30,727 nt of DNA from a virus, in IMG/VR virus record IMGVR_UViG_3300045988_150938; one strand, written 5' to 3'. The translations under genes and the position numbers were made by a program. Shown here one piece after another: positions 1 to 30,727 of the stretch (position 1 is the first letter of the stretch; every line of letters starts with the position of its first letter). The notes beneath the pieces were generated by a model. That model did not search any database. It was not told the DNA's origin and worked only from the letters and a program-made list of their open reading frames with translations.

Positions 1-665
1 CCCCGGAGCGTCAAATGCCGCCCATTTCCCCCTTCGGGTGAAATGTTCGCCATTGGCTCCGTGGTGCCGACACTTCGGCGCAAGCGCCTTGGTCGCTGTC
101 TGTTCCCTCTTGTTATTTTACTCCTCTATTTTTTATCTTTCCTTATCGGGAACCCTTTGTCCCTTCCGCAAGCGGAACGAACAATCAAGCCTGAAGGCTT
201 GGTCTGTCACGCCGCGGGCATAGCCCTCGGCTACAATCGAACCGCTTCGCTCTCGATTAATCACTATTTTATATAGATTTATCCTTGATATAACAGCTTT
301 TCTTGAATTTTCCGCGTCTGCCGCTTTTTCATTTGAATAGATTTTTATATGAATTAATTTTCTCGCAATTTAATTTCTTATAATTTTGTAAACGTGATAT
401 CTAACCGCTCCTATCTCTTAAACAGCTTCCTATATTTCTATTCACGCGTTCTATTGTTATTTTATTATAATAATTAAATAACATTATTTTACAAACACGA
501 ACTATTTATTGTTTTTTCTATGATTAATAGCCTTATTGTTCGTTTTTATTATATTTACATTCTTATGATATTCTTAATATTTACTATGTAACTTTCTTGA
601 TTACTTTCTTCTTCTCTTCACAAAAAAGCGTTGTATGATTTTTCATACAACGCTTAATTTTTTAC
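1..665. repeat. Left terminal inverted repeat. Positions 1-260 are identical to the reverse complement of 30468-30727 and GC-rich. Positions 261-665 are AT-rich and diverged (~85-90% identical) relative to 30063-30467.
   Basis: ORFs 38..223(+) and 30505..30690(-) translate identically. A manual reverse-complement alignment of both ends shows the first mismatches at position 261. Similarity continues to the hairpin at 627-656. Confidence 0.9.
627..662. terminator. Bidirectional stem-loop (aagcgttgtatg / catacaacgctt) flanked by A/T tracts. It terminates the minus-strand par operon and marks the inner edge of the left inverted repeat.
   Basis: 12-bp perfect stem, 6-7-nt loop, a T-run on the plus strand and an A-run upstream (a T-run on the minus strand). 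Confidence 0.7.
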
Positions 666-676
666 TTCATATTTTT

Positions 677-1054
677 CTATTTTTTTCTTTGTTGTTTATT
701 ATAATCTTTTAATTCCAGGGTGTCTAATATGAACTCAAACCTTTTAAGTTCCTCTTCATTCATATTTTCTACCTCTTTAGCACACATACTCTCTACAGCA
801 TGCTTTTGTGAATCAAATTTACCAATATTAACTAGAGCAGTTAATATATTTCTTATATGGTTATCTACTTTAATCGTTGCTCTTTCTGTTTCACTTTTTA
901 TACCCAACTTACTAGGATCGCTTTGTCTATTTGATAACATTTTATTTATATTTAAGTCGTTTCTATCAATTTGATTATTTATAACAGGGTTGGGCTTTCT
1001 TTGTAAACTATTATTCTCGTTACTTTTTTTAAGCATACCCATAAGCTTAATCAC
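677..1054 (-). CDS. Small basic protein with a predicted ribbon-helix-helix core (RATIKVDNHIRNILTALV...). Putative centromere-binding partner (ParG/omega-like) of the ParA.
   Basis: Lies immediately downstream of parA and overlaps its stop by 8 nt. The N-terminal part is disordered and Lys/Asn-rich, followed by a beta-strand plus two helices. This is the typical type Ib partition operon layout. Confidence 0.5.
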   Translation of the reverse strand: MIKLMGMLKKSNENNSLQRKPNPVINNQIDRNDLNINKMLSNRQSDPSKLGIKSETERATIKVDNHIRNILTALVNIGKFDSQKHAVESMCAKEVENMNEEELKRFEFILDTLELKDYNKQQRKK

Positions 1055-1850
1055 CCAACCTTTCTACCAATTCTGAAGCAACTCCATCAAATATTTGGTG
1101 AACTCTTTTATCATGTATATCTTTTCCGTTGTCTGTTATTCCAGTCATATCCATCCTTTTAATGCGTTCCATAATGGATATTTTATTTTGAAAAATATAT
1201 TCTTCACCAAATTCTTCTGTAGCTAGTTTTAGAACTTCTTCATCTACTCTTGCTCCTCGTTTACTAAGGACTGGTAGTATTCCTAACACATCACAATTAG
1301 CATTAAATTCATTGACTAATGTATTTTGAAGATATTGTATAAATACTTCCGCTCCAGTAAGGCTTCTTTCTTGGGTTTGTAATACAACTACTATTTGATC
1401 GCAACAATAAAAAGCAGTGTCGTTTAACAAAGATAACGTTGGTGGAACATCTATAAAAATATAATCGTATTCATTTACAACTGGAGATAAATAGCTTTTC
1501 AAAAATTGAATTCTATCTATTTCATTTGAAAAATTCTTTTCTAAAAACCTTGAATATACCGAAAAATCTACAGCATTTGGTATTAGTGATAAGTTTTCTT
1601 TTATAGTTATAGTTAATTCTTTAGGGTTTATATTTTCAGTAATTCCCTTCATTAAAGACTTGTCTATAGTCGTGATATTATTATCTTTTGAACTAGTTTT
1701 GATCATTAATGCTGTTAAGTTTGCCTGCGCATCTAAGTCCACTAACAAAACTTTTTTTCCCATTTTAGCTAAACTATAACCTACTAAAGCTGTGGTACTC
1801 GTTTTCCCTACTCCACCTTTAAAATTTGCAAATGATATCGTCTTTCCCAT
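1047..1850 (-). CDS. parA: ParA/Soj-family partition ATPase.
   Basis: Deviant Walker A KGGVGKTS at the N-terminus and the LLVDLDAQANLT motif. At 267 aa it is a small type Ib ParA. A good RBS sits upstream at 1856-1862 (plus-strand aggaggt). Confidence 0.9.
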   Translation of the reverse strand: MGKTISFANFKGGVGKTSTTALVGYSLAKMGKKVLLVDLDAQANLTALMIKTSSKDNNITTIDKSLMKGITENINPKELTITIKENLSLIPNAVDFSVYSRFLEKNFSNEIDRIQFLKSYLSPVVNEYDYIFIDVPPTLSLLNDTAFYCCDQIVVVLQTQERSLTGAEVFIQYLQNTLVNEFNANCDVLGILPVLSKRGARVDEEVLKLATEEFGEEYIFQNKISIMERIKRMDMTGITDNGKDIHDKRVHQIFDGVASELVERLGD

Positions 1851-1913
1851 TGTCTACCTCCTGCGGTGTACTTTTTTAATCATTATACTACTTGCGTAAA
1901 CTTTTTGCAAACG

Positions 1914-2062
1914 GTGTACAAGTGTACAGGTGTACAGGTAGACAGGTAGACAGGTGTACTTGTACACTTATTTAATTACAAACACTTATAAATTAACTAT
2001 CGTAATATGTGTACAAGTGTACAGGTGTACAGGTAGACAGGTAGACAGGTGTACTTGTACAC
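1914..2062. repeat. Two identical 54-bp copies (1914-1967 and 2009-2062) of an array of 8-bp units (gtgtacaN / ggtagaca). Each copy is internally palindromic at its ends. It lies between the divergent parA and repA_N genes and is a candidate iteron or centromere (parS) array.
   Basis: Direct reading: gtgtacaagtgtacaggtgtacaggtagacaggtagacaggtgtacttgtacac occurs twice, 95 bp apart. Confidence 0.85.
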
Positions 2063-2158
2063 CGTTCATTTTATCCTATTCCAATCTTATGTTTTTTTCT
2101 ATAGACTACTGAATATAAAGAACAATTACATATAAGTCTAGGAATCGGAGGGGTTAAC

Positions 2159-3061
2159 ATGAGTACAAATCAAAATGAGTTACAAGATAAATTAGCAGTA
2201 GAAGGTGTAAATGCAAATGGCTATGGTGTAATGCCTAAGCTTGTAATGCAAGATAAACGATTAACGATTGAAGCAAAATCAATCTATGCTTACATCGTTA
2301 GTTTTGCTGGCACAGGAAGTACAGCATTTCCTAGCTTACGGAAAATTCTAGAGGACTTACAGATTAGTGAAAAGCGTTTCTACAAACATCGTAAATTGTT
2401 AATTGACTGTAACTATATTTCTGTTACTCAAATTCGTAATGAGAAAAAAGAAATCATCAAAAATTTATACACGTTAATCTCTAATCCGAAAATTGAAGAA
2501 GAAGTACAAGATGAGGGTATCCGTCAAAATGACTGTGACCCTATCCCTCAATTTGACGGATACCCTATCAGTCAAAACGACCGACATAAAAGTAACAGTT
2601 TTAAAATTAACAATATAAAAGATGATGATGATATTAATAACGTATGCGAAGGCAAATTAACTCATGAAAATTTCTCTAACTATTCAACTCAAAAGGGCGT
2701 AGACTGTCCTTTAACAGTTCGAGAACGATTAACAACTGTACTCAAAGGAAAAGACTACTTAGCTCCGTTGGCGGTTTCTTTGCTTGCTGCTGGCGTGTCT
2801 GATGCAGACTGCTTAGAGATTATACAGTTTATTGTTACTTTGCCAGTCATTAATGAAGAAGTATCAGACCTGGTTAATGCACAAATACGTGCGAACGAAA
2901 CAGAAGCTAAAACAAACGGTCTTACTAGCTATAAGGCTTATTTCATTACAGGTTTAAAACAAAAGCTAGAAAATGCCGATATTTTTGTTCAAGAGACAAA
3001 TATTGTGAATCCTGATACAATTAAACCGTTACCAACTGTTACCATGCATAATTGGGTTTAA
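2159..3061 (+). CDS. repA: RepA_N-family plasmid replication initiator (N-terminal winged-helix domain).
   Basis: The N-terminal motif GYGVMPKLVMQDKRLTIEAKSIYAYIVSFAG...AFPSLRKILEDLQISEKRFYKHRKLLIDCNYI matches the RepA_N signature of Firmicutes theta plasmids. RBS ggaggggt is 6 nt upstream. The repeats at 1914-2062 lie upstream. Confidence 0.75.
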   Translation: MSTNQNELQDKLAVEGVNANGYGVMPKLVMQDKRLTIEAKSIYAYIVSFAGTGSTAFPSLRKILEDLQISEKRFYKHRKLLIDCNYISVTQIRNEKKEIIKNLYTLISNPKIEEEVQDEGIRQNDCDPIPQFDGYPISQNDRHKSNSFKINNIKDDDDINNVCEGKLTHENFSNYSTQKGVDCPLTVRERLTTVLKGKDYLAPLAVSLLAAGVSDADCLEIIQFIVTLPVINEEVSDLVNAQIRANETEAKTNGLTSYKAYFITGLKQKLENADIFVQETNIVNPDTIKPLPTVTMHNWV

Positions 3062-3086
3062 TTTGTTGAATGGAGGAGGAAAGAAA

Positions 3087-4049
3087 ATGAAAGAAGAACA
3101 AAACAGAGTAGAGAAAACCAAAAGAAAAAAAAGGACCAAAACGGCCATCTTGATAATTTTATTTTTACTTGTTATAAGCGGAGGAGCATTTACATTAGTA
3201 AATAGCAAAAATTTATTTTCAGATCATACTGCTAAAAGTAAACATGTGAGTATTTCTAGCGAGACCAAAGAATCTAAAAGTAAATCAAGTACATCATCCA
3301 GCCATGTAAGTAACCGTGATGAGAGTAAAAAAGAAGTAGACACGACGGATTTATCAAATGAACAAGTTGTAGAATGGATAAATTATGTAGTAGATAATTG
3401 GGAGAAAGCACACAATATTGCTTGGTCATATACTGTTGATCGGTTAAATGATTTAAACGGGCGAGATAGTAATTCAATTTATTATAGTGTTAGATTTCAA
3501 AATCCAAAATATCCCATGATGATATTACGAATTAATCCAGAAGGAATCATGGAATTTGAAACTAATACAGTAGACGCAACTAAAAATAAGAATTTTGAAT
3601 ATAAAGTTTTATCTAAAAACTATAAAGATATCAGTTTGATTAATGATTTAGATACTTCTGAATTAAGTAAAATATCGCAACAAACAGAGCAATCATCTAA
3701 TAATAGTTCTGGATATAGTTCATTAAACATCAATCAAAGAATTAGTTTAATGGCACGCTTACATGACAAAATTGATTTTCAAGATTTTGTCAATATCACT
3801 TATAATATAACTGAACTTCCTGATGGAACTCAAAATGTTGTAATTAGAAATTATGGTCTCCATGCTCACACAGAAACAATTGCATACAAAGTAGATAAAA
3901 CTTCTATAAATCCAAGCTCGTTTCCAAGCGATCAGACAACTACAAAAAACGACTTGTTCAAAATGTACGAACAAGACAAAGATAAGTATAATGAATTGGC
4001 AACTAAAGTTAGTTATGATTCTTCTTTAGAATTTTCACAAAATAATTAA
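3087..4049 (+). CDS. Membrane-anchored, Ser-rich extracytoplasmic protein. It has a basic N-terminus, one TM helix (AILIILFLLVISGGAFTLV) and a Ser/Lys-rich linker. Candidate superinfection-exclusion or surface protein.
   Basis: The ATG at 3087 is preferred over the track start at 3063 because RBS ggaggagga lies 6 nt upstream. A bidirectional terminator follows. The gene sits between the rep and repressor genes. Confidence 0.6.
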   Translation: MKEEQNRVEKTKRKKRTKTAILIILFLLVISGGAFTLVNSKNLFSDHTAKSKHVSISSETKESKSKSSTSSSHVSNRDESKKEVDTTDLSNEQVVEWINYVVDNWEKAHNIAWSYTVDRLNDLNGRDSNSIYYSVRFQNPKYPMMILRINPEGIMEFETNTVDATKNKNFEYKVLSKNYKDISLINDLDTSELSKISQQTEQSSNNSSGYSSLNINQRISLMARLHDKIDFQDFVNITYNITELPDGTQNVVIRNYGLHAHTETIAYKVDKTSINPSSFPSDQTTTKNDLFKMYEQDKDKYNELATKVSYDSSLEFSQNN

Positions 4050-4097: not shown

Positions 4098-4832
4098 TTA
4101 TTTTACGACTTTTCCGATTATATATATTTCATCAGTTTTTGAAGTATAAAAATCTGGAAACAAGCGGTTGCCATCTTTATCAACATCGGTATTAAAAGAA
4201 ACAAAGCGTAGTCTGTCTTTTTCTTTATAGATACGTTTGATAAATGCATTTCCGTTAATTTCAACACATCCTATCATACCTTGTTCTATTTCAGATTGTT
4301 TTCTAACAAAAATTATTTGACCATCTTCATAAGTTGGATACATGCTGTCGCCAGATACACGGAATGCTAAATCATAATCTTTTGGAATATCATTTTCAGG
4401 AATCTCTATTGTTTCTATAGGTTGACATTTATCATAATTAATTGTTCCATATCCAGCGGTCATAATCCCATATAAATTTACAGATTTTTTGACTGGTAAA
4501 GATATAACATTGTTTTTTTCTTGTTTTTGTTCCTTTAGCTGTTGCTTTGCAGAGTTTAGTACAACTAATTTTCTATCAGAAGTTAATTGGTTAAGAATAG
4601 TTGTAATTCTTGAAATTATATCTGAATCTTCATTACTTAAATTAAGCAAATCCTCTGGTTTCATATTTAGTCCATCAGCGATTTTAATTATATTTTCAAC
4701 TTTAGCATTCATGATTCCACGTTGGAGAATTGATCTAACAGTTGTGTATGGTAATCCAATTTCTATTGAGAACGCATTAACATTTCCAAATTTTAATTCA
4801 ATCAATTTTTTTAAACGATCTTCTAAGTTCAT
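4098..4832 (-). CDS. LexA/CI-like autoproteolytic repressor with an N-terminal HTH and a C-terminal S24 peptidase domain.
   Basis: C-terminal RVSGDSMYPTYEDGQIIFV (Ser nucleophile) and FIKRIYKE (Lys). N-terminal HTH (NVNAFSIEIGLPYTTVRSI). The start at the ATG of MNLEDRL is chosen because of a strong RBS (aggaggtga, 4 nt spacer). The longer ORF-track start at 4880 lacks an RBS. Confidence 0.85.
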   Translation of the reverse strand: MNLEDRLKKLIELKFGNVNAFSIEIGLPYTTVRSILQRGIMNAKVENIIKIADGLNMKPEDLLNLSNEDSDIISRITTILNQLTSDRKLVVLNSAKQQLKEQKQEKNNVISLPVKKSVNLYGIMTAGYGTINYDKCQPIETIEIPENDIPKDYDLAFRVSGDSMYPTYEDGQIIFVRKQSEIEQGMIGCVEINGNAFIKRIYKEKDRLRFVSFNTDVDKDGNRLFPDFYTSKTDEIYIIGKVVK

Positions 4833-4859
4833 GTGATCACCTCCTGAAAGTATAGTACC

Positions 4860-4977
4860 ATACGAAAAATCGTATAACAAGAGATAAATCCATTGACAAT
4901 GTACGAAAAATCGTATATTGTTTAATTAAACAATATTTAGCGTTTATTTTTTTATAACGATATACGAAAATTCGTAC
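4860..4977. promoter_or_regulatory. Divergent immunity-switch region. It holds three 16-bp inverted-repeat operators, (a/g)tacgaaaa(a/t)tcgta(t/c), at 4860-4875, 4901-4916 and 4962-4977. A rightward promoter (ttgaca 4894-4899, tatatt 4914-4919) overlaps operator 2.
   Basis: Read directly: atacgaaaaatcgtat, gtacgaaaaatcgtat, atacgaaaattcgtac. The half-sites atacga/tcgtat are perfect inverted repeats. Confidence 0.75.
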
Positions 4978-4993
4978 AAAAGGAGTGACTTTT

Positions 4994-5188
4994 ATGTTAG
5001 ATAATTTAGAAAAAGCTAGACAAGAAAAAAATATATCATTAGTTTCTATGGCGGCTGTATTAGGTGTTAAATATCAAACACTTAGAGAAAAGATAAACGG
5101 AACTTCTGAATTTAAATTTAAAGAAGCTCTAATAATCCAAGAAGAATTTTTTCCAGAATATGAGATTAAATTTTTATTTAAAAAATAA
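4994..5188 (+). CDS. Cro-like small HTH regulator.
   Basis: 65 aa with an HTH (ISLVSMAAVLGVKYQTLREKING). It is divergent from the repressor. RBS aggag is 8 nt upstream of the ATG at 4994; the GTG at 4985 in the track is less likely. Confidence 0.65.
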   Translation: MLDNLEKARQEKNISLVSMAAVLGVKYQTLREKINGTSEFKFKEALIIQEEFFPEYEIKFLFKK

Positions 5189-5204: not shown

Positions 5205-5354
5205 ATGTCAAAAGAAAAACTAGATTTTATTTTAGAAGTATTTCCACATGTTCAAAAAATTTTACCATTTGCTACAGAAGATAATTTAGAAAAATTATTT
5301 GAACAAGCGAAGCAACGTTTAGAAGTTGAATTAATGGAAGTTCAATTTGAGTAA
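5205..5354 (+). CDS. Hypothetical small early protein (49 aa).
   Basis: RBS ggagga is 7 nt before the ATG at 5205. The track ORF 5160..5354 would overlap cro by 29 nt. Confidence 0.45.
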   Translation: MSKEKLDFILEVFPHVQKILPFATEDNLEKLFEQAKQRLEVELMEVQFE

Positions 5355-5374
5355 GTGTAGGAGGAGGGAATTTA

Positions 5375-5755
5375 ATGTCTGAAAAAATTAGAACAGCCTG
5401 TAATAACATTTATGATTTTAAAGTTGTAGAAGAAGATGGTGTTAACAAAGTAAGCACTCCAGGTATGAATTTACCAAAAGTAGTAAAGGAACGAATCATG
5501 TTTTTTAGAAAATATCTTGATGATGGGATGACTTTTATAGGATGTCTACGGATGGTTATGGCAGTAGAAGATGAAACAGAGTTAAAAATGGATTTTGAAG
5601 CTGGCGCATACGAAGATTACTTACCAGCAACTGAAGAATTTAAACAGTGGCGTGACGAATTTGCATTATCTCAATTACATGAAATGGAAGTTGCTGTAGC
5701 CTTAATTTATGGGTTAGGAGAGGAAGCGGAATGGAACGATTTAACATTGAATTAG
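5375..5755 (+). CDS. Hypothetical early protein (126 aa).
   Basis: Strong RBS taggaggaggg. Tightly packed operon. Confidence 0.6.
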   Translation: MSEKIRTACNNIYDFKVVEEDGVNKVSTPGMNLPKVVKERIMFFRKYLDDGMTFIGCLRMVMAVEDETELKMDFEAGAYEDYLPATEEFKQWRDEFALSQLHEMEVAVALIYGLGEEAEWNDLTLN

Positions 5756-6033
5756 TAAGACGTGACAAAGTCAAAGTGGAGCTTGATCCAAATTTTTTCA
5801 ACGAGGAATGGTTTAAAGAATTCCGCCAGTTCTTTTATGACTATGAAACTTTAGAAGAAATAGCAGAGTATATCACGTTTAATGTTGTGCATAATAACGA
5901 AACTTTCATCGATGGTATTGGTATACCTTTGAGAAATGGAAAACGGCCATATTGGCTAAAGAAAGATGAAGAAGTAAACGGGCACGTAAACGTTATTTAT
6001 AACAGTTATGATACTGAAATCGAATATGACTAG
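5731..6033 (+). CDS. Hypothetical early protein (100 aa).
   Basis: ORF overlaps the upstream gene by 25 nt. Coding-like composition. Confidence 0.5.
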   Translation: MERFNIELVRRDKVKVELDPNFFNEEWFKEFRQFFYDYETLEEIAEYITFNVVHNNETFIDGIGIPLRNGKRPYWLKKDEEVNGHVNVIYNSYDTEIEYD

Positions 6034-6044
6034 GAGGAGCAGCG

Positions 6045-6377
6045 ATGGAAAATTATGATCCAAATATCCGATGGGGAACTCATACAATTAAAGTGAGTTT
6101 CCAACAATGGGACTACAAAGGATTTATTATTTTTGAAAAAGGTGGAAATTGTAAAGGATTAGATATCTTAGAACTAGGTGAAGATGATTTATATGATGTG
6201 AAATTTAAAGAAAATCCAATCAATTTCAGATTGCTTAGTGCAGATGCTGACTGCGAAGAGTGGTTCGCTATGACTTTAAAAAATGATAAAGAAGAACTGT
6301 TGGTTGAAGATGAATGGTATTGTTTGAAAGATTATATTGTAGGTGTTGAGATTGTTGATTTTGTTGAGAATGAATAA
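6045..6377 (+). CDS. Hypothetical early protein (110 aa).
   Basis: RBS taggaggag is 7 nt upstream. Confidence 0.6.
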   Translation: MENYDPNIRWGTHTIKVSFQQWDYKGFIIFEKGGNCKGLDILELGEDDLYDVKFKENPINFRLLSADADCEEWFAMTLKNDKEELLVEDEWYCLKDYIVGVEIVDFVENE

Positions 6378-7104
6378 ACAAGAAATGGAAGAATCCAATT
6401 TTTTGGATGAATATAAAAAAGCTGGTTGGAAACTATGTTCAAGAATTCTTGGCATAAAAGAAGAGGAGACAACAATGGATAAACAAGAATTGATTGAAGA
6501 GTTAAAATGCTTAGAAGTTAAAACAGGTAGTCTCGATTATCTGAAAGGAGCTAACTATGCAACAGAAAGAGCAATTAGTTTAGCAAAACAACTAGACGAA
6601 CCGAAAAAAGTCATATTTTCGCATGAAGAGAAATTTGTGGCTGACTGGCTTAATGATTTAAGAGGTCAAATCAGTAATGTTAAGTTAAATTCTGGGGCTG
6701 TTTTCATGACGTTCATCGGCAGACAGTTAGAGCGGTACTATGATGAAGAATACTCGTTTTTAACTGAAAAAATAGAGAGCTGGCTTACAGTTCCAAAAAA
6801 TAAAGTTAAACTAATGAGCGCCATTGACAACGGCTACGAAGTCGAGAAAGAGCCAATCATTCATGAACTAAAGATCTTACCAGAATACTTTGAAGCAGTT
6901 GTTTCAGGTAATAAACGTTTTGAAATCCGTAAGAATGACCGTAACTATAAAAAAGGCGATATCTTACGCTTAAACGAATATCAAGACGGACAATATACAG
7001 GTGATGTCTATGTCGCAGAAATAACTTACATTACAAATTATGCACAACAAGATGGCTATATTGTCTTAGGGATTAAGGGGAAGCAGGTAACTAATGAAAA
7101 CTGA
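6370..7104 (+). CDS. Protein with a C-terminal ASCH/DUF3850-like (PUA-like) domain.
   Basis: The C-terminal LKILPEYFEAVVSGNKRFEIRKNDRNYKKGDILRLNEYQDG...VYVAEITYI matches the DUF3850/ASCH pattern. The start is chosen as an ATGA-type overlap with the upstream stop. The track start at 6343 is an alternative. Confidence 0.55.
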   Translation: MNKQEMEESNFLDEYKKAGWKLCSRILGIKEEETTMDKQELIEELKCLEVKTGSLDYLKGANYATERAISLAKQLDEPKKVIFSHEEKFVADWLNDLRGQISNVKLNSGAVFMTFIGRQLERYYDEEYSFLTEKIESWLTVPKNKVKLMSAIDNGYEVEKEPIIHELKILPEYFEAVVSGNKRFEIRKNDRNYKKGDILRLNEYQDGQYTGDVYVAEITYITNYAQQDGYIVLGIKGKQVTNEN

Positions 7105-7579
7105 TTTAACCAAACAAGCCGAGAAATGCTTGTGGTACTACACCAACAAAATGGGTGTGTTCGGCTGTTTTGAGGTGACAATTGGATGGTTCGGTAAGGA
7201 AAGAGTTGATTTCATGACTTATTCAACGGACAACACTATTAGATGTTATGAAATAAAAGTAACGTTGGCAGACTTAAAGAGCTCTGCAAAACAAACGTTT
7301 TTAGGTGATTATAACTATTTAGTAGTTACGAACAAATTATGGGAAAAGATTCAAGCCAATCCAGATTTGAGATGGAAATATCACAACCAAGGAATACTAG
7401 TTTTTTCTGAACTAAGACACAATTTAGGTATTACAAGTGTTAAAAAGGCGAAAAAACAAAATGTACCTCTAGGAACACGAGCAACGGTCTTAGAAAGTAT
7501 GGTGCGATCTTTAAATCGAGAAGTTGAGAAATTTTACAAGGTAAAGCCTTTTTGGGGATTAAGTGAGGAGGATGAATAA
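7094..7579 (+). CDS. MmcB-like PD-(D/E)XK-family putative nuclease.
   Basis: The motif series E...ERVDFM...CYEIKVTLADLKS...NYLVV fits the D / E-x-K core of the MmcB-like restriction-endonuclease fold. Confidence 0.45.
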   Translation: MKTDLTKQAEKCLWYYTNKMGVFGCFEVTIGWFGKERVDFMTYSTDNTIRCYEIKVTLADLKSSAKQTFLGDYNYLVVTNKLWEKIQANPDLRWKYHNQGILVFSELRHNLGITSVKKAKKQNVPLGTRATVLESMVRSLNREVEKFYKVKPFWGLSEEDE

Positions 7580-7762
7580 ATGGAACAAATTATATTAACA
7601 AATATTGATGAAAATAAAATTGATATGGAAGCAACAGGACTAGAACAAAAAGAAATTGTCTTTACATTATCTGCTGCTTTAATTGGATACAGCAAAGAAT
7701 TAGGCTTAACAAAAGCGATACTAAATGAAATTATGTCCGATCTGTGGAAAGATGATGAATAG
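7580..7762 (+). CDS. Hypothetical small acidic protein (60 aa).
   Basis: RBS gaggagga is 8 nt upstream. Confidence 0.55.
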   Translation: MEQIILTNIDENKIDMEATGLEQKEIVFTLSAALIGYSKELGLTKAILNEIMSDLWKDDE

Positions 7763-7921
7763 ATGAAGTACAAAACTAGATATCACAGCATTGTTCCGAA
7801 AGGACAAATAGGCGAGTGTGTTGATAAAGTCGATGGAAAAATTTTAGCTTTATTGATCAAATTTGAAAATGGCGAAGTATTTTGGTTTATGAAGCGAGAC
7901 CTAATTAAAATTGAGGAGTGA
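7763..7921 (+). CDS. Hypothetical small protein (52 aa, MKYKTRYHSIVPKGQIGECVDKVDGKILALLIKFENGEVFWFMKRDLIKIEE). Not in the supplied ORF track because it falls under the 60-aa cutoff.
   Basis: Manual translation. The ORF fills an otherwise gene-free 155-bp gap in a dense operon. Confidence 0.35.
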   Translation: MKYKTRYHSIVPKGQIGECVDKVDGKILALLIKFENGEVFWFMKRDLIKIEE

Positions 7922-7926
7922 ATATT

Positions 7927-8115
7927 ATGGAAAATAGATTTGAATGGTTTGAAATAACTGATAATATTTCTGAAAAATTAAATGAACTATCAAAAACATA
8001 TGCAATATGCGATGTTAAATATGTTGTGACTTGGTCGCCAAATATGGCATACGACAAAACTTATGCACTGATAAAAGCGATCCGTTTAGACGAACCAATT
8101 TTTAGAGATAAATAA
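7927..8115 (+). CDS. Hypothetical small protein (62 aa).
   Basis: RBS gaggagtga is 6 nt before the ATG at 7927. Confidence 0.5.
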   Translation: MENRFEWFEITDNISEKLNELSKTYAICDVKYVVTWSPNMAYDKTYALIKAIRLDEPIFRDK

Positions 8116-9918: not shown

Positions 9919-10102
9919 GTGGTGTAATGACAAACGAGTGGTACAAGAATTTGATTCACTTTTTGGCATTTTAAAGGTTAAACCTTGTCCTGTTTGTAAT
10001 CAAATAGTCAATAATTACGAAGCTCAAAAGGACGGTGACCTATTAAATGACAGACAATTTTTGGATGCTCCAGGGAAATCAATTGAAAAAATGGCGAGAT
10101 AG
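9902..10102 (+). CDS. Small zinc-ribbon protein (CxxC...CxxC).
   Basis: CKWCND...CPVCNQ. Confidence 0.5.
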   Translation: MKKMCKWCNDKRVVQEFDSLFGILKVKPCPVCNQIVNNYEAQKDGDLLNDRQFLDAPGKSIEKMAR

Positions 10103-10283
10103 AAGAAATCTAACACAAAAACAATTAGCCATGAAAATAGGTTGTCAACGTATGACGATTAGCAGGATAGAACAAGAAAAGCAAAAACCATCGTTAGAAT
10201 TAGCCTATTCTTTAGCAAATGCTTTAGATTTAAAGATAGAAGACCTCTTTTTATTTGAAAACAAGGAGCGTGAAAATGTGTGA
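10047..10283 (+). CDS. XRE-family HTH transcriptional regulator. The true start is possibly the internal Met at 10065.
   Basis: LTQKQLAMKIGCQRMTISRIEQEKQKPSLELAYSLANAL is a classic Cro/C1-type HTH. Confidence 0.65.
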   Translation: MTDNFWMLQGNQLKKWRDRRNLTQKQLAMKIGCQRMTISRIEQEKQKPSLELAYSLANALDLKIEDLFLFENKERENV

Positions 10284-11620: not shown

Positions 11621-11636
11621 AAGTTAGGTGGAACTT

Positions 11637-17519: not shown

Positions 17520-17534
17520 GGGAAGTGGTCAGGG

Positions 17535-21582: not shown

Positions 21583-22584
21583 ATGGAAAACCAGTTATTT
21601 GAAGATACATGGGGATACCAAACAGGTTTAGCCTCTTCATACAACAACGTGATAGGAAATAGAAGAGACCTGTTACAAGGGATTGAAACTAGTTCTACAA
21701 CTACTGGAGATAATCTGGGGAATAATTATGTACAATTCGAAGCGATACAAACATTTATACTAATTAGACAAATTAAAGATATGCTGATCAATTTATTTAA
21801 GTATGAAAATATGCCGCCTACGTTAAATACAGCTCAATTAGAAACTATGCTCCGTCAAATGGGTGGAGGGGTTTGTGTAGGTAAAGACGAATTAGGAGAC
21901 CTAGTGATTTTAGGAAGAGCAGACGAATTAGGGTATAACCTATATGGGAATGTTATCCCTAGTCTTTTTGACGGTAATAATAATTTTTTACAAAGTAAAA
22001 AGGTTATTACTAACAGAAATTTAAAAGGCGATTATGTCGTTTTTTATAACAAGCAAAGCTTTAATGATTTTTATGCTACTGATTATGATATCGTCGAACA
22101 CTATGCGAAACAATTAGCAACTATTAAAGCAACAGAAAGAATGAATATTATGCAAATGCGTAGTCCATATATTTTGAAAGGTAAAAAAAACGGCCAAGTC
22201 GGACAAGTATTACAAAGTAAAATTCAAAAAGGTGACTTGTTTTTAGAGGTAGAAGAGGGTTCAGATATTACAGATAAAATTGAAAAACTAGATTTAAATG
22301 TAACAGATAGGACACCGTCACTACAAAATGCCTATCGGAATACATTTAATGAAATGCTGACGTTATTTGGTATCTACAATAATCCAGAACAAAAGAAAGA
22401 ACGAATGATCGATAGAGAAGCAAGTTCAAATAATCATGTTATTGAAGGAATGGGGGACATTTACTTTAATGCTCGTCAACATGCGGTTGATTTATTGAAC
22501 CTTGCTTTTGGTACAGATATCAAAGTTCAGTGGAATAGTACAGTAGCATCAATGTTTAGAGATTTAGGACAAAAACAAGGATAG
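21583..22584 (+). CDS. phi29 gp10-like head-tail connector (portal/upper collar) protein.
   Basis: LFKYENMPPTLNTAQLE matches phi29 LFEWENLPPTINPSFLE. NAYRNTFNEMLTLFGIYNNPEQKKERMIDREASSNNHVIEG matches phi29 [38 protein letters not shown]. 333 aa versus 309 aa in phi29. Confidence 0.8.
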   Translation: MENQLFEDTWGYQTGLASSYNNVIGNRRDLLQGIETSSTTTGDNLGNNYVQFEAIQTFILIRQIKDMLINLFKYENMPPTLNTAQLETMLRQMGGGVCVGKDELGDLVILGRADELGYNLYGNVIPSLFDGNNNFLQSKKVITNRNLKGDYVVFYNKQSFNDFYATDYDIVEHYAKQLATIKATERMNIMQMRSPYILKGKKNGQVGQVLQSKIQKGDLFLEVEEGSDITDKIEKLDLNVTDRTPSLQNAYRNTFNEMLTLFGIYNNPEQKKERMIDREASSNNHVIEGMGDIYFNARQHAVDLLNLAFGTDIKVQWNSTVASMFRDLGQKQG

Positions 22585-25073: not shown

Positions 25074-25808
25074 ATGGCATGGCAAAATGTTTATGGTAGT
25101 TGGAAACACGATCCAGGAGTAAAAGGGGACGTTATTATGGCAGGAGGGCCAGGATGGAATAAATTTCCAGGACGCCCTCCTGGTTCTCCTGCACCATATG
25201 GAAAAGGAGTAAGTGTTGTAACAGTAAAAAAAGACACATATCGATTTAAATTATCTCTAGTTGCATATGCAATTTCAGTGACGACAGGAGAGTATTTTGT
25301 TAGTTCTTATCAAGGTGGTCCCAATGCGGATTATCAATGGATAATAAAAGCTGCAATTAGTTACGATCAAACAACTGATCCTGCAAAAGCAAAATATCAA
25401 AATTTATTTCAAGAGAATTTCAAAACAATGTATCACGGCGGAGAACCATTGTATGGAAATACTAATTGGCATACAAAAGCGTATGAAAAAGAAACATCTA
25501 ATACATTTACTGCAACAAGTAAAGATGTATGGATTCGTATTGAGATTTATGGAGAACCAGCAGTCACACCATTATATGCATACTTTAAGCTGGCATCAGC
25601 ATTTGAAGAGTTTAGGCCGTGGGCGATTCGAAAAAATAATCAATGGAATAGTTTAGATAAAGAAACAGGCTTCTTCCAAAAACGAAAAAATAGTAAGTGG
25701 GAAGATATTCCTAAAATGTCTTATGAAGATGTAGGAAAAGACAATAAAGGAACGTCACGTATTAGAAAAGAAGGAGTATGGAAAGGTCAAGGCAAAATTG
25801 GAAATTAA
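25074..25808 (+). CDS. Tail structural protein (244 aa). Possible lower-collar or tube component.
   Basis: ORF 3 nt after the appendage gene stop. Gly/Pro-rich N-terminus. Confidence 0.45.
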   Translation: MAWQNVYGSWKHDPGVKGDVIMAGGPGWNKFPGRPPGSPAPYGKGVSVVTVKKDTYRFKLSLVAYAISVTTGEYFVSSYQGGPNADYQWIIKAAISYDQTTDPAKAKYQNLFQENFKTMYHGGEPLYGNTNWHTKAYEKETSNTFTATSKDVWIRIEIYGEPAVTPLYAYFKLASAFEEFRPWAIRKNNQWNSLDKETGFFQKRKNSKWEDIPKMSYEDVGKDNKGTSRIRKEGVWKGQGKIGN

Positions 25809-25821
25809 GGAAGTGAACTTA

Positions 25822-27624
25822 ATGGATCGTCATTTAACGGAAATTGTATTATTTAAAAATACTCCTCTTAATGATTTTCAAAATACTATTCATTTTAAAT
25901 CAGATGAGGATCGAGACAATTATTTTCTTAAAGAAAACCATTTTAAAAAAATAAATTTTGATACTGGTTTTAATTTCGTGAGAGATCGTCTGCAAATTAA
26001 AGCACCGATTGAATATGCAAAATGTGATGGTGTCAACTATTGTACTTTTATATCTTCACGTGATAATAAACGGTACTATGCTTTCGTGATGTCTTATCAA
26101 TACATTAATGAAAAAGTTACTAGATTGAATTTAATAATTGATGTGGTTATGACGTTTACGCAAGGTAAAACATTGAATACATTGAAAAATATCCATGTTA
26201 TTAGAGAGCATTTAAATCGATCAGACTATATAAAATATTTACCATTGTTGAGAACTAATGGAGATATATTAAATACAACAACAAAAGCATATGTTCAAAC
26301 TAAATTAAAATCGTTTAAATCCTACTTTGTTGTTTTTCAGAGTTCAGTTGATTTATCAAAAGAATTCGGAACTGTAGATGCACCCAAAATGGAAACATCA
26401 CAAGGAAATCAATATGACAATATGACTAGCCCAGTAAATCTTTATGCGATTCATTATGAATACTTTAATGGATTAATGAAAATTTTAGCTCCGTATCCGT
26501 GGATTATGCAGAACATTCAATTACTCATGATGATACCTGACGATTTTATAAACTTAGAAGATTTGGTAACTGTTAAAGCAAAAGAATTTAATTATGAAAA
26601 CCTGAAAACGTTCAAGAAAGGTGGGAAATCTCTTAACAAAGAACTTGATGGAATTAACTATTCTATTAATGAGTTATGTAATATATATGGAATTGACCAT
26701 AATGAGGAAAAACATTTGTTAAGAACAGGATACACAACAGCAGAAATTTATAGTTGGGATGGTCAAAGGATTTTATTAGATAACGCATTTTTAGATGAAA
26801 ACACTGGCATTAAATTCAGAGCGAAAACATCTATTGGTTATGAGAATAAGATTGCACTTTACCCAATTAATTATAAAACAACGGAAAAAGAAAAAGCTGT
26901 TAAAAATTCAAAAGGTGAAATTCTGATTGATAAAGGTTCATTTTTGAATGACGCAATCATTTACGACAATTTCACAGAATTACCTATTTTAATCGATAAT
27001 TATCGACTATCAAAAGCAAGTAATGCGTACAGTAGACAATTAGCGGAGGACAGATTGCCATCCAACCGAATAAATTCAACTGTTAAAGATATTACTTCTG
27101 GGAATCTATTAGGTAATATGCAATCGGGTAATTTACAAGGAACACAAGGAAGTTTCTATAATGCTGTAAATCTATTAAGCGATTTAAAACCACAATCAGT
27201 TTTATCAAAATTCGAAAATGAATACGAATTTTATAGAAATCAACGAGCAGAGTTCGCAGATATGGCATTAAAAGCACCGACAATAACAAATCAAAGTCCT
27301 GGTACTGCTTTTCAAATGGCTAATGAAATAAATGGTCTTACTATAAAACTTTCTGCACCTTCAGAACAAGAATTTGCTAAAGTAAAAAAATATTACAAGA
27401 TGTTTGGATATGAAATTGAAGAAGATGGAAAACAAATAAGTGATATCGAAAGTATGACTATTTGTAATTTTTTACAAATTAGAGGTAATTACAAGATACA
27501 CGGAGTTGATGTAGCTTTGATGGAGCAACTAAAAGCACAATTGGAAAATGGTGTACGTTTTTGGCATAACAATAATACTAGCAATCCTATGGAACAAGAT
27601 ATCCAAAAAAACAAAATGAGGTGA
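25822..27624 (+). CDS. phi29 gp9-like tail knob (distal tube) protein.
   Basis: KRYYAFVMSYQYINEKVTRLNLIIDVVMTF...IHVIREHL matches phi29 [32 protein letters not shown]...FIVREHV. C-terminal GVRFWHNNNTSNP matches GITLWHTDNIGNY. 600 aa from ATG 25822 versus 599 aa for gp9. RBS aaggaagtga. Confidence 0.8.
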   Translation: MDRHLTEIVLFKNTPLNDFQNTIHFKSDEDRDNYFLKENHFKKINFDTGFNFVRDRLQIKAPIEYAKCDGVNYCTFISSRDNKRYYAFVMSYQYINEKVTRLNLIIDVVMTFTQGKTLNTLKNIHVIREHLNRSDYIKYLPLLRTNGDILNTTTKAYVQTKLKSFKSYFVVFQSSVDLSKEFGTVDAPKMETSQGNQYDNMTSPVNLYAIHYEYFNGLMKILAPYPWIMQNIQLLMMIPDDFINLEDLVTVKAKEFNYENLKTFKKGGKSLNKELDGINYSINELCNIYGIDHNEEKHLLRTGYTTAEIYSWDGQRILLDNAFLDENTGIKFRAKTSIGYENKIALYPINYKTTEKEKAVKNSKGEILIDKGSFLNDAIIYDNFTELPILIDNYRLSKASNAYSRQLAEDRLPSNRINSTVKDITSGNLLGNMQSGNLQGTQGSFYNAVNLLSDLKPQSVLSKFENEYEFYRNQRAEFADMALKAPTITNQSPGTAFQMANEINGLTIKLSAPSEQEFAKVKKYYKMFGYEIEEDGKQISDIESMTICNFLQIRGNYKIHGVDVALMEQLKAQLENGVRFWHNNNTSNPMEQDIQKNKMR

Positions 27625-27628
27625 AAAT

Positions 27629-29008
27629 ATGCCGCTATTAAATTATGATCAGCAATATGATTATCTAAACAAGCTAGTGCAAGCGTGTAAAAAGGCAGGC
27701 ATACCTAAGGAAACAACAATAGCTTTGGCAATTAATGCAGCTCATGAATCTTATTTAAACCCATGGACAATTGAAGGAGCTATTAATCCTGGACCTCCTT
27801 TGGGTGCGAACGGTTGGGATGATGGAGCTTCTGGAGGAGGTCTTTGGCAATGGACGCCATTTGCTGGCAAAATAACATTGGGCGATTTTGATGGACAAGT
27901 AGCTTTTATGATTTCTTATAAGCAACAATGGGATATAACTGGATCGTGGTTTAGAGCGGCAGGACTACCAGACCCTACTCCTAAAATAGAGAATTTTGAC
28001 CAATTTTTATATAACCAGCTTGGTTATGATTCTGTAGCTCTAACAAAAGCTTTTATAGGCTACTGGGAAAGGCCAGCGTATAACCCTGGTACTATTAGAT
28101 ATAACACAGCTCAGGAAGAAGTCGCAGAAATTGAACCTTTGGTTAATAAGTATTGGGGAAATACTGGGAACGAAAAACCTAGTGAAGGTTCTCCAGGTGG
28201 TGGAGGTTCTGGTAGCAAGAATCCTGAAAAGCCAGATAAAGAAGATATACCAAATGATAATGTAGGGTTATCAGATGCGATTAAAAGCATAGTAAATGAA
28301 TTCCTAAAAAAATATGATGATGCTATGAAGAAACAAGTCTATATGATGGATGGCGGTAAAAATACTTATTCAAATTCAAGTGTTAAAGTAATGAAAACAT
28401 ACAACAATTTGATGACTGTTAAAATGACGAATAATTTTATAGAATCTCTAAAAAAATTAATGGATGAAAGTAAACAACCATCTAACAAACCACCTTCTCC
28501 GCCACCAGAAACAAAACCAGATAATCCGCCAAACAATCCTCCCGATGAACCTCCTAAGAATATGGATGGTATTTATAATTGGGCATTAAATAATTTAGGC
28601 CAAACTTTTAACTATCCAGCGGCTCATCCAGGATCAGGTCCTCAATGTGTAGACTTAATTAAAGCTTTATCAGAATTTTATCTTCCAGGCAATCCATTAG
28701 CTCCTGCATTAAGTTACGGTAATGCGCAAGACATATATTCACATGATCTTCCTGCTGGTTGGGAACACGTGCAAGGAGATATCGGTAATGATGATAATGC
28801 AAAAAAAATATGGGATTCATTACCAAATGGAGCGATAGTATTTTGGCTATATTCTGAATATGGACATGTGGGAATAAAAGCCGGTAATAATGGGCTAGAT
28901 ACAATTAACCAAAATTATAACGGCACTCCATACGTTACTCGTGATGATATTTGGTATTGGCAACACGTTTTAGGCGCTGGATTTTTGGGTGCGTGGATTA
29001 CTAAATAA
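27629..29008 (+). CDS. Tail-associated peptidoglycan hydrolase. N-terminal lytic-transglycosylase/lysozyme-like domain (AINAAHESYLNPW), Pro-rich linker, C-terminal CHAP domain.
   Basis: ES catalytic-type motif. Linker PSNKPPSPPPETKPDNPPNNPPDEPP. CHAP Cys (GPQCVDLIK) and His (EYGHVGIK). Confidence 0.7.
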   Translation: MPLLNYDQQYDYLNKLVQACKKAGIPKETTIALAINAAHESYLNPWTIEGAINPGPPLGANGWDDGASGGGLWQWTPFAGKITLGDFDGQVAFMISYKQQWDITGSWFRAAGLPDPTPKIENFDQFLYNQLGYDSVALTKAFIGYWERPAYNPGTIRYNTAQEEVAEIEPLVNKYWGNTGNEKPSEGSPGGGGSGSKNPEKPDKEDIPNDNVGLSDAIKSIVNEFLKKYDDAMKKQVYMMDGGKNTYSNSSVKVMKTYNNLMTVKMTNNFIESLKKLMDESKQPSNKPPSPPPETKPDNPPNNPPDEPPKNMDGIYNWALNNLGQTFNYPAAHPGSGPQCVDLIKALSEFYLPGNPLAPALSYGNAQDIYSHDLPAGWEHVQGDIGNDDNAKKIWDSLPNGAIVFWLYSEYGHVGIKAGNNGLDTINQNYNGTPYVTRDDIWYWQHVLGAGFLGAWITK

Positions 29009-29169: not shown

Positions 29170-29358
29170 ATGCCACTTACCGGAAAGCAAATGCTAAAGC
29201 TCTTAAAAAATAATGGTTGGATTGAACGAAGACAAGAAGGCTCACATCATCACTTATACAAAGATGGCGTAAGAATTACAGTACCAGTTCATGGAAATCA
29301 AGATTTAGGAAAAGGGCTAGAGCGAAAAATCTTAAAAGATGCAGGGCTAAAAAAATAG
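29170..29358 (+). CDS. hicA: HicA-family mRNA interferase toxin.
   Basis: KQMLKLLKNNGWIERRQEGSHHHLYK...ITVPVHGNQDLGKGLERKILKDAGL is a near-canonical HicA. Confidence 0.9.
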   Translation: MPLTGKQMLKLLKNNGWIERRQEGSHHHLYKDGVRITVPVHGNQDLGKGLERKILKDAGLKK

Positions 29359-29387
29359 CCCTCGTCTTTCAAGAGAAGGAGGTACTT

Positions 29388-29597
29388 ATGTTTGAAAATG
29401 GAGAAATCATTTTATATCAAAATGGAGAACGGTATGAAGTTGGTATTGTTAAGGAGAGATACGATAATAGCGAAGGTATAGAAAGTTATCGTGTTTACTA
29501 TCATTCAGGCGATACTACTGCTTTGACAAATGCAACAGACATGAAAAAAATTTGCAATGAAGCAATGCTTCCTGAAATGTTAAGAAAGTTTGTATAA
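29388..29597 (+). CDS. Hypothetical 69-aa protein inserted between hicA and hicB.
   Basis: Strong RBS agaaggaggt. No recognisable motif. Confidence 0.55.
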   Translation: MFENGEIILYQNGERYEVGIVKERYDNSEGIESYRVYYHSGDTTALTNATDMKKICNEAMLPEMLRKFV

Positions 29598-29611
29598 AGG
29601 GAGGGAACATC

Positions 29612-30073
29612 ATGTCATTACAAACATCTTTGAAAGTAGCTTATCCTGCTATTTTTCATCCAGAAGAGGGTGGAGGATACTTTATTGAATTTCCAGATGT
29701 TCAAGGAGCGTATACAGGTATAAATGAAAATGATATAGCCTATGGTTTATTGATGGCTGAAGAAGTTTTAGGTATGGTGTTAGCTGATTATATTGAAAAT
29801 AATGAGACGTTGCCTAAAGCAAGTGAATTAAATAGTATAAGTCATAAACCTGATGAATTTGTAACTATGGTTTTAGTTGATATAGAAGAATATTTTAAAG
29901 ACATGAAACCAGTAAAAAAGACGCTAACGATCCCAAGTTGGGCCAATAACTGGGGAAATAGAGTAGGAATAAATTTTTCGCAACTGTTAACGGAATCGAT
30001 CGCACAGACAGCAATAAATTACACACAAGAGACATTAAAGGAAACAAAAGAAAAATACGAAGTAAAAAATTAA
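29612..30073 (+). CDS. hicB: HicB-family antitoxin.
   Basis: YPAIFHPEEGGGYFIEFPDVQGAYTGINENDIAYGLLMAEEVL matches the HicB N-terminal RNase-H-like fold signature. RBS aagggagggaa. Confidence 0.8.
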   Translation: MSLQTSLKVAYPAIFHPEEGGGYFIEFPDVQGAYTGINENDIAYGLLMAEEVLGMVLADYIENNETLPKASELNSISHKPDEFVTMVLVDIEEYFKDMKPVKKTLTIPSWANNWGNRVGINFSQLLTESIAQTAINYTQETLKETKEKYEVKN

Positions 30074-30098
30074 GCGTTGTATGAAAAATCATACAACG
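30062..30098. terminator. Bidirectional stem-loop (aacgttgtatg / catacaacgtt followed by tttttt). It is the mirror of the hairpin at 627-662 and the inner edge of the right inverted repeat.
   Basis: Read directly. Partner of the left-arm hairpin. Confidence 0.75.
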
Positions 30099-30727
30099 TT
30101 TTTTTGTGAAGAGAAGAAGAAAGTAACCAAGAAAGTTACATAGCAAATATTAAGAATATCATAAGAATACGAATATGACAAAAACGAACAATACAGCTAT
30201 TAATAATAGAAATAACAATAAATAGTTCGTGTTTTGTAAATAGATGTTATTTAATTATTAACATAAAATAACACTATTATTCAAAAGTAGAAATATAGGA
30301 AACGATTTAAAAGATGCGAACGGTTAGATACTACGTTAACAAAATTATAAGAAATAAAATTGTCAGAAAATTCAGAAATATAAAAATCTATTTAAATGAA
30401 AAAGCGGCAGACGCGGAAAATTAAATAAAAGCTGTTATATCAAGTATAAATCTGTATAAAATAGTAGTTAATCGAGAGCGAAGCGGTTCGATTGTAGCCG
30501 AGGGCTATGCCCGCGGCGTGACAGACCAAGCCTTCAGGCTTGATTGTTCGTTCCGCTTGCGGAAGGGACAAAGGGTTCCCGATAAGGAAAGATAAAAAAT
30601 AGAGGAGTAAAATAACAAGAGGGAACAGACAGCGACCAAGGCGCTTGCGCCGAAGTGTCGGCACCACGGAGCCAATGGCGAACATTTCACCCGAAGGGGG
30701 AAATGGGCGGCATTTGACGCTCCGGGG
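30063..30727. repeat. Right terminal inverted repeat. Positions 30468-30727 are identical to the reverse complement of 1-260. Positions 30063-30467 are the diverged AT-rich part.
   Basis: As for the left repeat. Confidence 0.9.

Follow-up and report, generated by a model that had tools for sequence, protein, structure and literature searches.

We analyzed a 30,727-nucleotide (nt) viral sequence, IMG/VR record IMGVR_UViG_3300045988_150938 (the window, meaning this whole stretch at its full length), which, judging from its sequence, represents in full the genome of a linear Enterococcus faecalis phage-plasmid of the EF62phi type. It encodes a miniature family-B DNA polymerase that profile comparisons identify as homologous to residues ~221-471 of the phi29 DNA polymerase, and directly upstream of this gene lies a candidate gene for a terminal protein (TP). 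The best explanation overall, and in our judgment a probable one, is a phage-plasmid of this type with a miniature polymerase and TP-capped ends, which would initiate replication internally and then patch its ends. The polymerase/telomere module appears to be undescribed in the searchable literature. The element itself is already known: an earlier note on this DNA, made from the letters alone, had read it as a temperate, plasmid-like relative of the phi29 lineage, which is borne out by its 97-99% identity to the published EF62phi and is thus correct but not new. The same note saw no obvious terminal protein and no protein-primed replication genes, and here it has to be corrected, as the following two genes lie in the very region (11057-12638) that it had named as the place where its reading could be refuted:

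11057 to 11620, plus strand: 187-amino-acid (aa) all-helical protein, candidate terminal protein, directly upstream of the mini-polymerase
11628 to 12638, plus strand: 336-aa miniature family-B DNA polymerase of the protein-primed type, with palm, TPR1 and fingers and without an exonuclease domain or KxY/thumb

Single-sequence scans were uninformative for the polymerase, and a collection of homologs with profiles built from it was needed to recognize the enzyme; taken alone, both open reading frames (ORFs) match nothing in Pfam, NCBIfam and PHROG beyond EF62phi-specific PHROG families of unknown function. Among 5.8 billion proteins, 30 homologs of 327-374 aa were found. A precomputed match to PF03175 (DNA_pol_B_2) was available for two of them, and hmmscan of the family matched five of the 30 to this model (best E=1.8e-6). 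When the family profile was compared with the PDB, phi29 DNA polymerase ranked first (E=1.7e-5), and hhalign against a profile of 17 full-length protein-primed family-B polymerases gave a probability of 98.6% (E=6.6e-16), with residues 74-314 aligned to phi29 221-471. The AlphaFold2 model built from the alignment (pLDDT 92, pTM 0.90) has a palm-fingers fold that is nearest to that of phi29 DNA polymerase. The claim that no ORF contains the ordered motifs of a family-B polymerase therefore does not hold: the protein has motifs A, B and C in the proper succession, in divergent form.

Motif A: YD100FAEAY105TNIM in the window, FDVNSLYPAQM in phi29
Tx2AR motif: a counterpart of AR is present in the window, Tx2AR in phi29
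Motif B: K238MLRNKIYG246 in the window, KLMLNSLYG in phi29
Motif C: IKT301D302G (IKTDGLYF) in the window, YCDTDS in phi29

D100, K238, G246 and T301-D302 are invariant in all 30 homologs, and Y105, at the steric-gate position of phi29, is nearly so; the catalytic residues are unchanged in homologs down to 43% identity. Motifs A and B are separated by 138 aa, as against 134 aa in phi29, with profile alignments spanning phi29 ~261-358; the similar spacing argues that the TPR1 insertion typical of protein-primed enzymes is retained. Other parts are reduced or missing. The Exo I, II and III motifs, invariant in the 17 full-length relatives, have no counterpart in the mini-polymerase, where only 73 residues precede the aligned span (which begins at phi29 221); no exonuclease domain was found in the other scanned ORFs of the window; and the TPR2 region is ~15 residues shorter than in full-length relatives. 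The missing parts of phi29 DNA polymerase normally provide processivity, strand displacement and proofreading, and the mini-polymerase looks too stripped-down for a processive, proofreading whole-genome replicase. The miniature form is rare: a search of 1.84 billion cluster representatives returned only four full-length clusters of it, and the weaker matches, proteins of 530-660 aa aligned over residues ~250-480, have the length and the aligned segment that ordinary protein-primed polymerases would show.

We consider the 187-aa protein a fairly likely terminal protein, on the basis of synteny and co-occurrence, not homology. Its gene travels with the mini-polymerase in all six divergent contexts compared and is adjacent to it in five of them; among the window proteins tested against distant contexts, it alone accompanies the polymerase. 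The order of the two genes is the TP-then-polymerase order of phi29 and Cp-1. The protein has few homologs and is predicted to be all-helical (pLDDT 87); three tyrosines (Y57, Y67 and Y88) and the motif FRN..GRNR.E are invariant across 17 sequences. Terminal proteins are joined covalently to 5' ends by a Ser, Thr or Tyr residue. Alternatively, it could be an accessory subunit, such as a substitute for the processivity or thumb elements or a telomere-binding factor, in which case another gene, such as ORF 3063-4049 or one of the small early ORFs, would encode the primer protein. A thumb-less polymerase might indeed need a partner, and two results tell against a terminal protein: the family has an hhalign probability below 1% with the terminal proteins of phi29 and Cp-1, and a fold search returned only generic helical bundles. 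Yet an accessory role leaves the association with the polymerase, seen for no other window protein tested, the position copied from phi29 and Cp-1 and the three invariant tyrosines to be explained, and we find it rather unlikely.

The earlier observation of long terminal inverted repeats is confirmed, and these can be delimited as follows:

1 to 700: left terminal inverted repeat, pairing with 30027 to 30727
30027 to 30727: right terminal inverted repeat, the mirror image of 1 to 700; its outer 260 nt are those of the left arm
626 to 655 and 30072 to 30101: bidirectional terminator with a 13-bp stem, one in each inverted repeat

The outer 260 nt of the two arms are 100% identical; beyond them, identity is 72-96% per 50-nt block up to ~695. 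Because the inner parts of the arms have diverged by 8-11%, these are true inverted repeats and not fold-back assembly artifacts. Positions 1-260 form a GC-rich telomere (55% GC versus 33% overall) that is dense in short hairpins and starts with 5'-CCCCGGAG, whereas positions 261-700 of the left arm are AT-rich. The window begins with CCCCGGAGCG, and the telomere hairpins include GGCG-CAAG-CGCC and TTCCG-CAAG-CGGAA. The 3' strand of the telomere folds far better than shuffled sequences (z=-6.2; a second folding z-score is -4.4). The element thus has the inverted repeats with palindrome-rich telomeres that are characteristic of invertrons. The ends are also physical ones: the window and the EF62phi record share the same end nucleotides from base 1, 5'-CCCCGGAGCGTCAAATGCC at either terminus, and because two independent assemblies stop on the same base, the window represents a complete linear genome. 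A model with a protelomerase and hairpin telomeres (N15 type) was rejected, as no protelomerase or other end-resolving enzyme family was found in any scanned ORF and the ends are long, diverged inverted repeats of each other, not self-palindromes of the telRL type.

Two ORFs, 43-276 on the plus strand and 30440-30685 on the minus strand, lie wholly within the GC-rich hairpin telomeres; the EF62phi annotation lists them as hypothetical proteins, and they are probably not genes. The terminator at 626-655 closes the par operon and that at 30072-30101 closes the hicAB operon. Scans for promoters and terminators upstream of 11057 and in the inverted repeats gave nothing above shuffle expectation except the terminator at 626-655.

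The same gene pair is found in linear plasmids of another species. By tblastn, the mini-polymerase was detected in 112 Enterococcus plasmids, 18 of EF62phi type and 94 from E. faecium, the latter 45-211 kb in size and carrying a version with ~48% identity; the 187-aa protein was detected in 119 Enterococcus plasmids. In pELF_JHP9 (NZ_AP026568.1 69184-71125) the two genes are adjacent, annotated as hypothetical and located ~11 kb from the right end, and the upstream protein of 264 aa matches the 187-aa family with an hhalign probability of 99.85%. In this longer homolog the N-terminal domain of ~75 aa is duplicated internally (EAS..Y..FK.RGLIP...GRYTAKGY). It is known that pELF1 has a hairpin at its left end, whereas its right end is resistant to lambda exonuclease, is retarded unless treated with protease and is rich in hairpins with four-base loops (PMC6863802). 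We found that the pELF right terminus is 5'-CCCCGGAGGGTGCAAGACG, beginning 5'-CCCCGGAGGG, and that it contains four stem-CAAG-stem hairpins. This terminus was seen at the end of one metagenome contig and also in several complete plasmid records, where it is terminal or no more than two bases away from being so. Its terminal octamer, CCCCGGAG, is common to the window and the pELF right ends, with a chance expectation of ~1.5e-5. A blastn search of plasmids with the 300-nt telomere matched EF62phi-type records only, the likeness to pELF being limited to the octamer and the hairpin motif. Because the gene pair, the terminus and the hairpin motif are common to replicons that have nothing else in common, we argue that they belong to one functional telomere system, and the homologs of the 187-aa and 336-aa proteins are candidate terminal-protein and polymerase genes of pELF. 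The pELF literature to 2026, as far as it is searchable, speaks only of a "putative terminal protein" and names neither a polymerase nor an identified terminal protein.

A scan of GTDB genomes added only one species, E. innesii. [quoted passage not shown] From gene content, then, the combination of mini-polymerase, phi29-type packaging ATPase and plasmid genes recurs on different plasmid backbones. The ENA contig k141_370358 (30.4 kb) carries the gene pair without phage genes, together with a sortase, a 2186-aa surface protein and an integrase, and may be another linear plasmid type.

How might such a module be used? The genome starts with 5'-CCCCGGAG, its 260-nt telomeres are rich in hairpins, and the pELF right end, which is protein-capped, has this terminus and is accompanied by the gene pair described above; we therefore infer that both 5' ends of the element are capped by the 187-aa protein. 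Most of the genome would be replicated in carrier cells from an origin in its interior, with the host replisome acting together with the DnaD/DnaC-like loaders and the plasmid-type initiator(s). The mini-polymerase would afterwards fill in the recessed ends by TP-primed synthesis, in a manner resembling the end patching of Streptomyces. We favor end patching because the enzyme has neither proofreading nor the elements for processivity and strand displacement, because the element carries theta-type initiation genes, none of which were found in the annotated records of phi29 and Cp-1, because the telomeres resemble foldable 3' overhangs, and because in pELF the module serves only one end of plasmids of up to 211 kb. 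The earlier proposal of a replication strategy different from that of phi29 may thus still be partly right, in view of the theta-type initiator and helicase-loader genes and the reduced polymerase; its premise that genes for protein priming are absent is not sustained. More tentatively, and as a possibility that we would put somewhat short of probable, the 187-aa and 336-aa proteins constitute a dedicated, horizontally mobile telomere module, common to temperate phage-plasmids of the phi29 lineage and pELF; it would recognize hairpin telomeres of the CCCCGGAG type and do no more than patch the ends of replicons that the host replisome copies, for the most part, from an internal origin.

Several considerations weigh against end patching by this pair. 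The protein cap, the polymerase activity and the position of the origin are all inferred, and GC skew was rejected as an origin locator, as it merely tracks gene orientation. Taken alone, the 336-aa ORF matched no Pfam family at E<=1 and nothing in NCBIfam. The first Asp of DTDS is replaced by K/R, and KxY (K495/Y497 in the full-length set) has no counterpart, the protein stopping 34 residues past motif C; the mini-polymerase might be inactive alone or need a partner. The gene pair lies downstream of cro inside the long rightward array, where neither a promoter nor a terminator can clearly be assigned to it, and this placement fits use in the lytic phase better than carrier maintenance. Furthermore, in Logan contig SRR31641222_6647 the SSB gene is close to the polymerase, an arrangement that would suit strand-displacement replication.

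The last two points also speak for the main rival, in which the terminal protein and the mini-polymerase would start at both ends and copy the whole 30.7 kb by strand displacement in the manner of phi29, at least during lytic growth, with the initiators serving the carrier state or other roles. The genes stand beside gp16 in the lytic-direction array, the inverted repeats match perfectly over their outer 260 nt, and the terminal run of C would suit sliding-back initiation as in phi29 and PRD1. The polymerase is of the protein-primed type with TPR1 kept, and a p2-type polymerase is treated in a 2024 review as a hallmark of all phi29-related clusters (PMC11476376). Against this stand the loss of the exonuclease domain and KxY/thumb, the shortened TPR2 and the presence here of initiator and helicase-loader genes. 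Moreover, the pair is also carried by pELF plasmids, which are 45-211 kb long, lack phage genes and are closed by a hairpin at their opposite end; priming of the whole replicon is hard to picture there. We regard replication of this kind as unlikely, if still the strongest competitor to end patching. Replication purely through the Rep, DnaD and DnaC-like proteins, with the mini-polymerase a relic or in another role (e.g., repair) and the ends protected in some other way (e.g., as hairpins), would suit the sub-threshold Pfam scores, the degenerate motif C, the missing enzyme parts and the plasmid-type replication genes, but is very improbable given the invariance of the catalytic residues, the retention of the pair in replicons with nothing else in common with the phage (pointing to a selected function), the co-occurrence of the conserved octamer with ends experimentally found to be protein-capped in pELF1, the lack of an end-resolving enzyme among the scanned ORFs and the true inverted repeats.

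EF62phi, the element to which the window corresponds, was reportedly described by Brede et al. in 2011 and has been in GenBank since that year; both its phi29-like virion genes and its plasmid genes have already been treated in print. In megablast searches with the first 25 kb of the window, EF62phi and E. faecalis records labeled "phage" or "plasmid" matched at 97-99% nucleotide identity; at least 80% of this stretch is covered by six phage records and six plasmid records, and ~18 E. faecalis "plasmids" are 97-99% identical to the window. We used NC_017732.1 (CP002495; 30,505 bp, linear) as the EF62phi reference for direct comparison, and it aligns with the window in collinear blocks of 94-99% identity. 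Gene order, modules and terminal nucleotides are the same, and most of the genome is 97-99% identical. The two differ by mosaic replacements at window positions 5354-7931 (early region) and 15889-17536 (lysis cassette), by an insertion of ~220 bp between hicA and hicB in the window, and by the length of the perfect inverted-repeat part, which is 260 nt in the window and 54 nt in the EF62phi record. Within the mosaic early region, positions 6832-7767 are 88.6% identical to the temperate phage phiEf11 and encode DUF1642 and ASCH/DUF3850 proteins.

Published accounts call EF62phi a pseudotemperate or pseudolysogenic phage, linear and extrachromosomal, that is common in E. faecalis isolates and whose upkeep is attributed to a Rep protein and a toxin-antitoxin system (PMC6521178, PMC10746210, PMC6863802). 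A 2024 review of phi29-related phages groups EF62phi with 24 E. faecalis "plasmids" (e.g., pBE32_2) as cluster 22, terms them phage-plasmids and lists as their traits ParA, a ribbon-helix-helix (RHH) adaptor, DNA repeats and a toxin-antitoxin pair (Evseev et al. 2024, PMC11476376). The window falls within this cluster by its high identity, collinearity and linear form with the same physical ends. The review reports a homolog of the phi29 polymerase p2 in all cluster representatives and does not discuss its truncation (PMC11476376). Many public copies (CP124938.1, LR962193.1 and other 28.9-kb records) start near window position 679 or are circularly permuted, and none of the plasmid records reaches the first 37 nt of the telomere. 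The inverted repeats appear to be dropped or collapsed by assemblers, so linearity and telomeres are easily missed.

By homology, the element would be kept like a low-copy plasmid through ParA and a small adaptor, repeat arrays and HicAB, and controlled by a cI(S24)/Cro switch. The genes and sites concerned are:

677 to 1054, minus strand: DUF5388 small protein, putative partition adaptor in a ParB role (Pfam E=1.6e-20)
1047 to 1850, minus strand: ParA-type partition ATPase (Pfam AAA_31 E=1.3e-40; CbiA/ParA)
1906 to 2078: two arrays of 8-bp repeats (GTGTACAG/GTAGACAG), with an inverted unit at the end of each, between parA and rep
2159 to 3061, plus strand: winged-helix replication-initiator-like protein (Pfam HTH_36 E=7.5e-9; PHROG replication initiator/DnaD-like families)
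4098 to 4880, minus strand: cI/LexA-like repressor with a helix-turn-helix (HTH) and an S24 peptidase (Pfam Peptidase_S24 E=1.5e-21; HTH_26)
4985 to 5188, plus strand: Cro-like HTH protein, divergent from cI and first of the long rightward array (Pfam HTH_3 E=1.7e-4)
8160 to 9059, plus strand: DnaD-domain replication protein (Pfam DnaB_2 E=2.2e-14; NCBIfam DnaD_dom E=1.3e-13)
9037 to 9918, plus strand: DnaC/DnaI/IstB-like AAA+ helicase loader (Pfam IstB_IS21 E=2.9e-6)
29170 to 30073, plus strand: HicA toxin (29170 to 29358) and HicB antitoxin (29612 to 30073)

Pfam and NCBIfam matches thus agree with the earlier identification of ParA with a small partner, the S24 repressor and Cro, the DnaD-like and DnaI/DnaC-like proteins and HicAB; for ORF 9037-9918, the NCBIfam matches to PRK08116, DnaC and DnaI are each under the curated cutoff. 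The proposed combination of a RepA_N initiator with iterons is upheld only as far as repeats are present. The RepA_N label (Pfam PF06970) was rejected for ORF 2159-3061, whose sole Pfam match at E<=0.01 is HTH_36, whereas the 8-bp repeat arrays are present and might serve as a centromere, as an iteron origin or in both roles. The 2024 review, where the partner of ParA is termed an RHH adaptor, reads the repeats as a centromere bound by this adaptor (PMC11476376). Two further ORFs deserve mention. One, of 69 aa (29388-29597), lies between hicA and hicB, has no family match and is absent from EF62phi, where hicB directly follows hicA. The other (10047-10283) lies midway along the rightward array, a short way upstream of the polymerase region; its product is a second HTH_3 protein with a strong match (E=2e-15), which may act as a middle or late regulator.

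The virion genes are those of a phi29-type podovirus. The similarity of three proteins to phi29 gp16, gp10 and gp9, first proposed from alignment by eye, is upheld by Pfam profiles and by BLASTP to the phi29 proteins, and with the major capsid protein and gp11 the set of phi29-like virion and packaging proteins is complete:

12677 to 13870, plus strand: gp16-type DNA packaging ATPase (Pfam Podovirus_Gp16 E=3.8e-18; BLASTP to phi29 gp16 E=1e-18)
14903 to 15724, plus strand: tail-fiber/receptor-binding-like protein (PHROG tail fiber families)
16415 to 17519, plus strand: lysis cassette with holin (16415 to 16693) and Amidase_2 endolysin (16665 to 17519)
17535 to 18302, plus strand: lower collar of phi29 gp11 type (phrog_5472 E=6.4e-125; phrog_3225 adaptor Ad4)
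20102 to 21511, plus strand: phi29-type major capsid protein (Pfam Phi29_MCP E=1.6e-76)
21583 to 22584, plus strand: gp10-type connector, or upper collar (Pfam Phage_connector E=5.3e-27; BLASTP E=3e-24)
25798 to 27624, plus strand: gp9-type tail knob (Pfam Caud_tail_N E=4.9e-25; BLASTP to phi29 gp9 E=1e-9)
27629 to 29008, plus strand: tail-associated lysin (tail lysozyme and CHAP)

The BLASTP alignment of the tail knob with phi29 gp9 is near full length (residues 6-588 of 600). Homology therefore predicts that the element builds a phi29-type particle and packages its DNA by a gp16-type motor. No Rfam match to the phi29 pRNA was found at E<=1 with a model that is not known to cover more than the Bacillus phages. 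The Rfam scan of the window gave just three matches, all sub-threshold and unrelated to pRNA; one of them, to the Enterococcus small RNA RefA9, lies at 13851-13909, at the end of the gp16 gene (34.5 bits versus a gathering score of 49, E=0.083). The endolysin is an Amidase_2 enzyme in the window and GH25 in EF62phi, and positions 16689-17519 have ~83% nucleotide identity to the lysin region of siphophage EFC-1; the composition of the lysis cassette (15889-17536) suggests that modules have been exchanged with unrelated enterococcal phages. Three consecutive genes (14062-14637, 14644-14886 and 14903-15724) have repeated N- and C-terminal segments at 73-77% nucleotide identity, and the region 14062-15724 looks like a duplicated fiber or decoration module.

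What is gained here is the correction: protein priming would not have been lost when the lineage turned temperate, a much reduced polymerase having been retained and replication genes of plasmid type acquired. The pELF linear plasmids spread vancomycin and linezolid resistance in E. faecium, and candidate genes and a defined origin sequence are now available for biochemical tests, for which the 30-kb phage-plasmid could be a model of pELF telomere replication. For the evolution and engineering of polymerases, too, a family-B core of 336 aa that has neither exonuclease nor thumb is of interest. If the proposal of a mobile patching module is true, a bacterial end-patching system would for the first time be seen to have a specialized family-B polymerase of its own, and the long-sought terminal protein and polymerase of pELF would be identified.

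Among known systems, the phi29-like podophages (Salasmaviridae; Cp-1) share with the window homologous capsid, connector, lower collar, tail knob and gp16 ATPase proteins as well as inverted terminal repeats, and in both a polymerase of the protein-primed type has a small gene directly upstream. They differ in size (30.7 kb for the window versus ~19 kb) and in the polymerase itself, which has 336 aa in the window and ~570 aa in phi29-like phages, the window enzyme being without the exonuclease and KxY/thumb. The candidate terminal protein of the window has no detectable homology to its phi29-like (phi29, Cp-1) counterparts, and the cI/Cro switch, ParA, toxin-antitoxin, initiator and helicase-loader genes set the window apart from these phages.

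Temperate tectiviruses of the Bam35/GIL01 group are maintained as linear extrachromosomal plasmids under LexA/S24-type regulation. They are tail-less, have an internal membrane and a double jelly-roll capsid and encode a full-length family-B polymerase with an exonuclease domain; they are not known to have ParA or a set of theta-type initiators. Like the window, these phages are temperate, and a protein-primed family-B polymerase and a terminal protein are described for them (PMC5175343).

The pELF plasmids of E. faecium (pELF1, pELF2 and pELF_JHP9) have the homologous mini-polymerase (48% identity) and upstream protein, the octamer CCCCGGAG and a GC-rich telomere with CAAG hairpins. Unlike the window, they are 45-211 kb in size, conjugative and free of virion genes; a telomere of the window type is found at one end only, the other being a covalently closed hairpin (PMC6863802), and beyond the shared motifs the telomeres cannot be aligned by blastn. 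Linear plasmids and chromosomes of Streptomyces, which rely on Tpg and Tap, resemble the window, in part by the accounts in PMC3273824 and PMC6863802, in their inverted repeats and palindrome-rich telomeres with a foldable 3' strand. They are also alike in having internal origin genes and a small terminal-protein candidate of ~185 aa. End patching in Streptomyces uses host polymerases (PMC3273824), while the element in the window encodes a family-B polymerase of its own.

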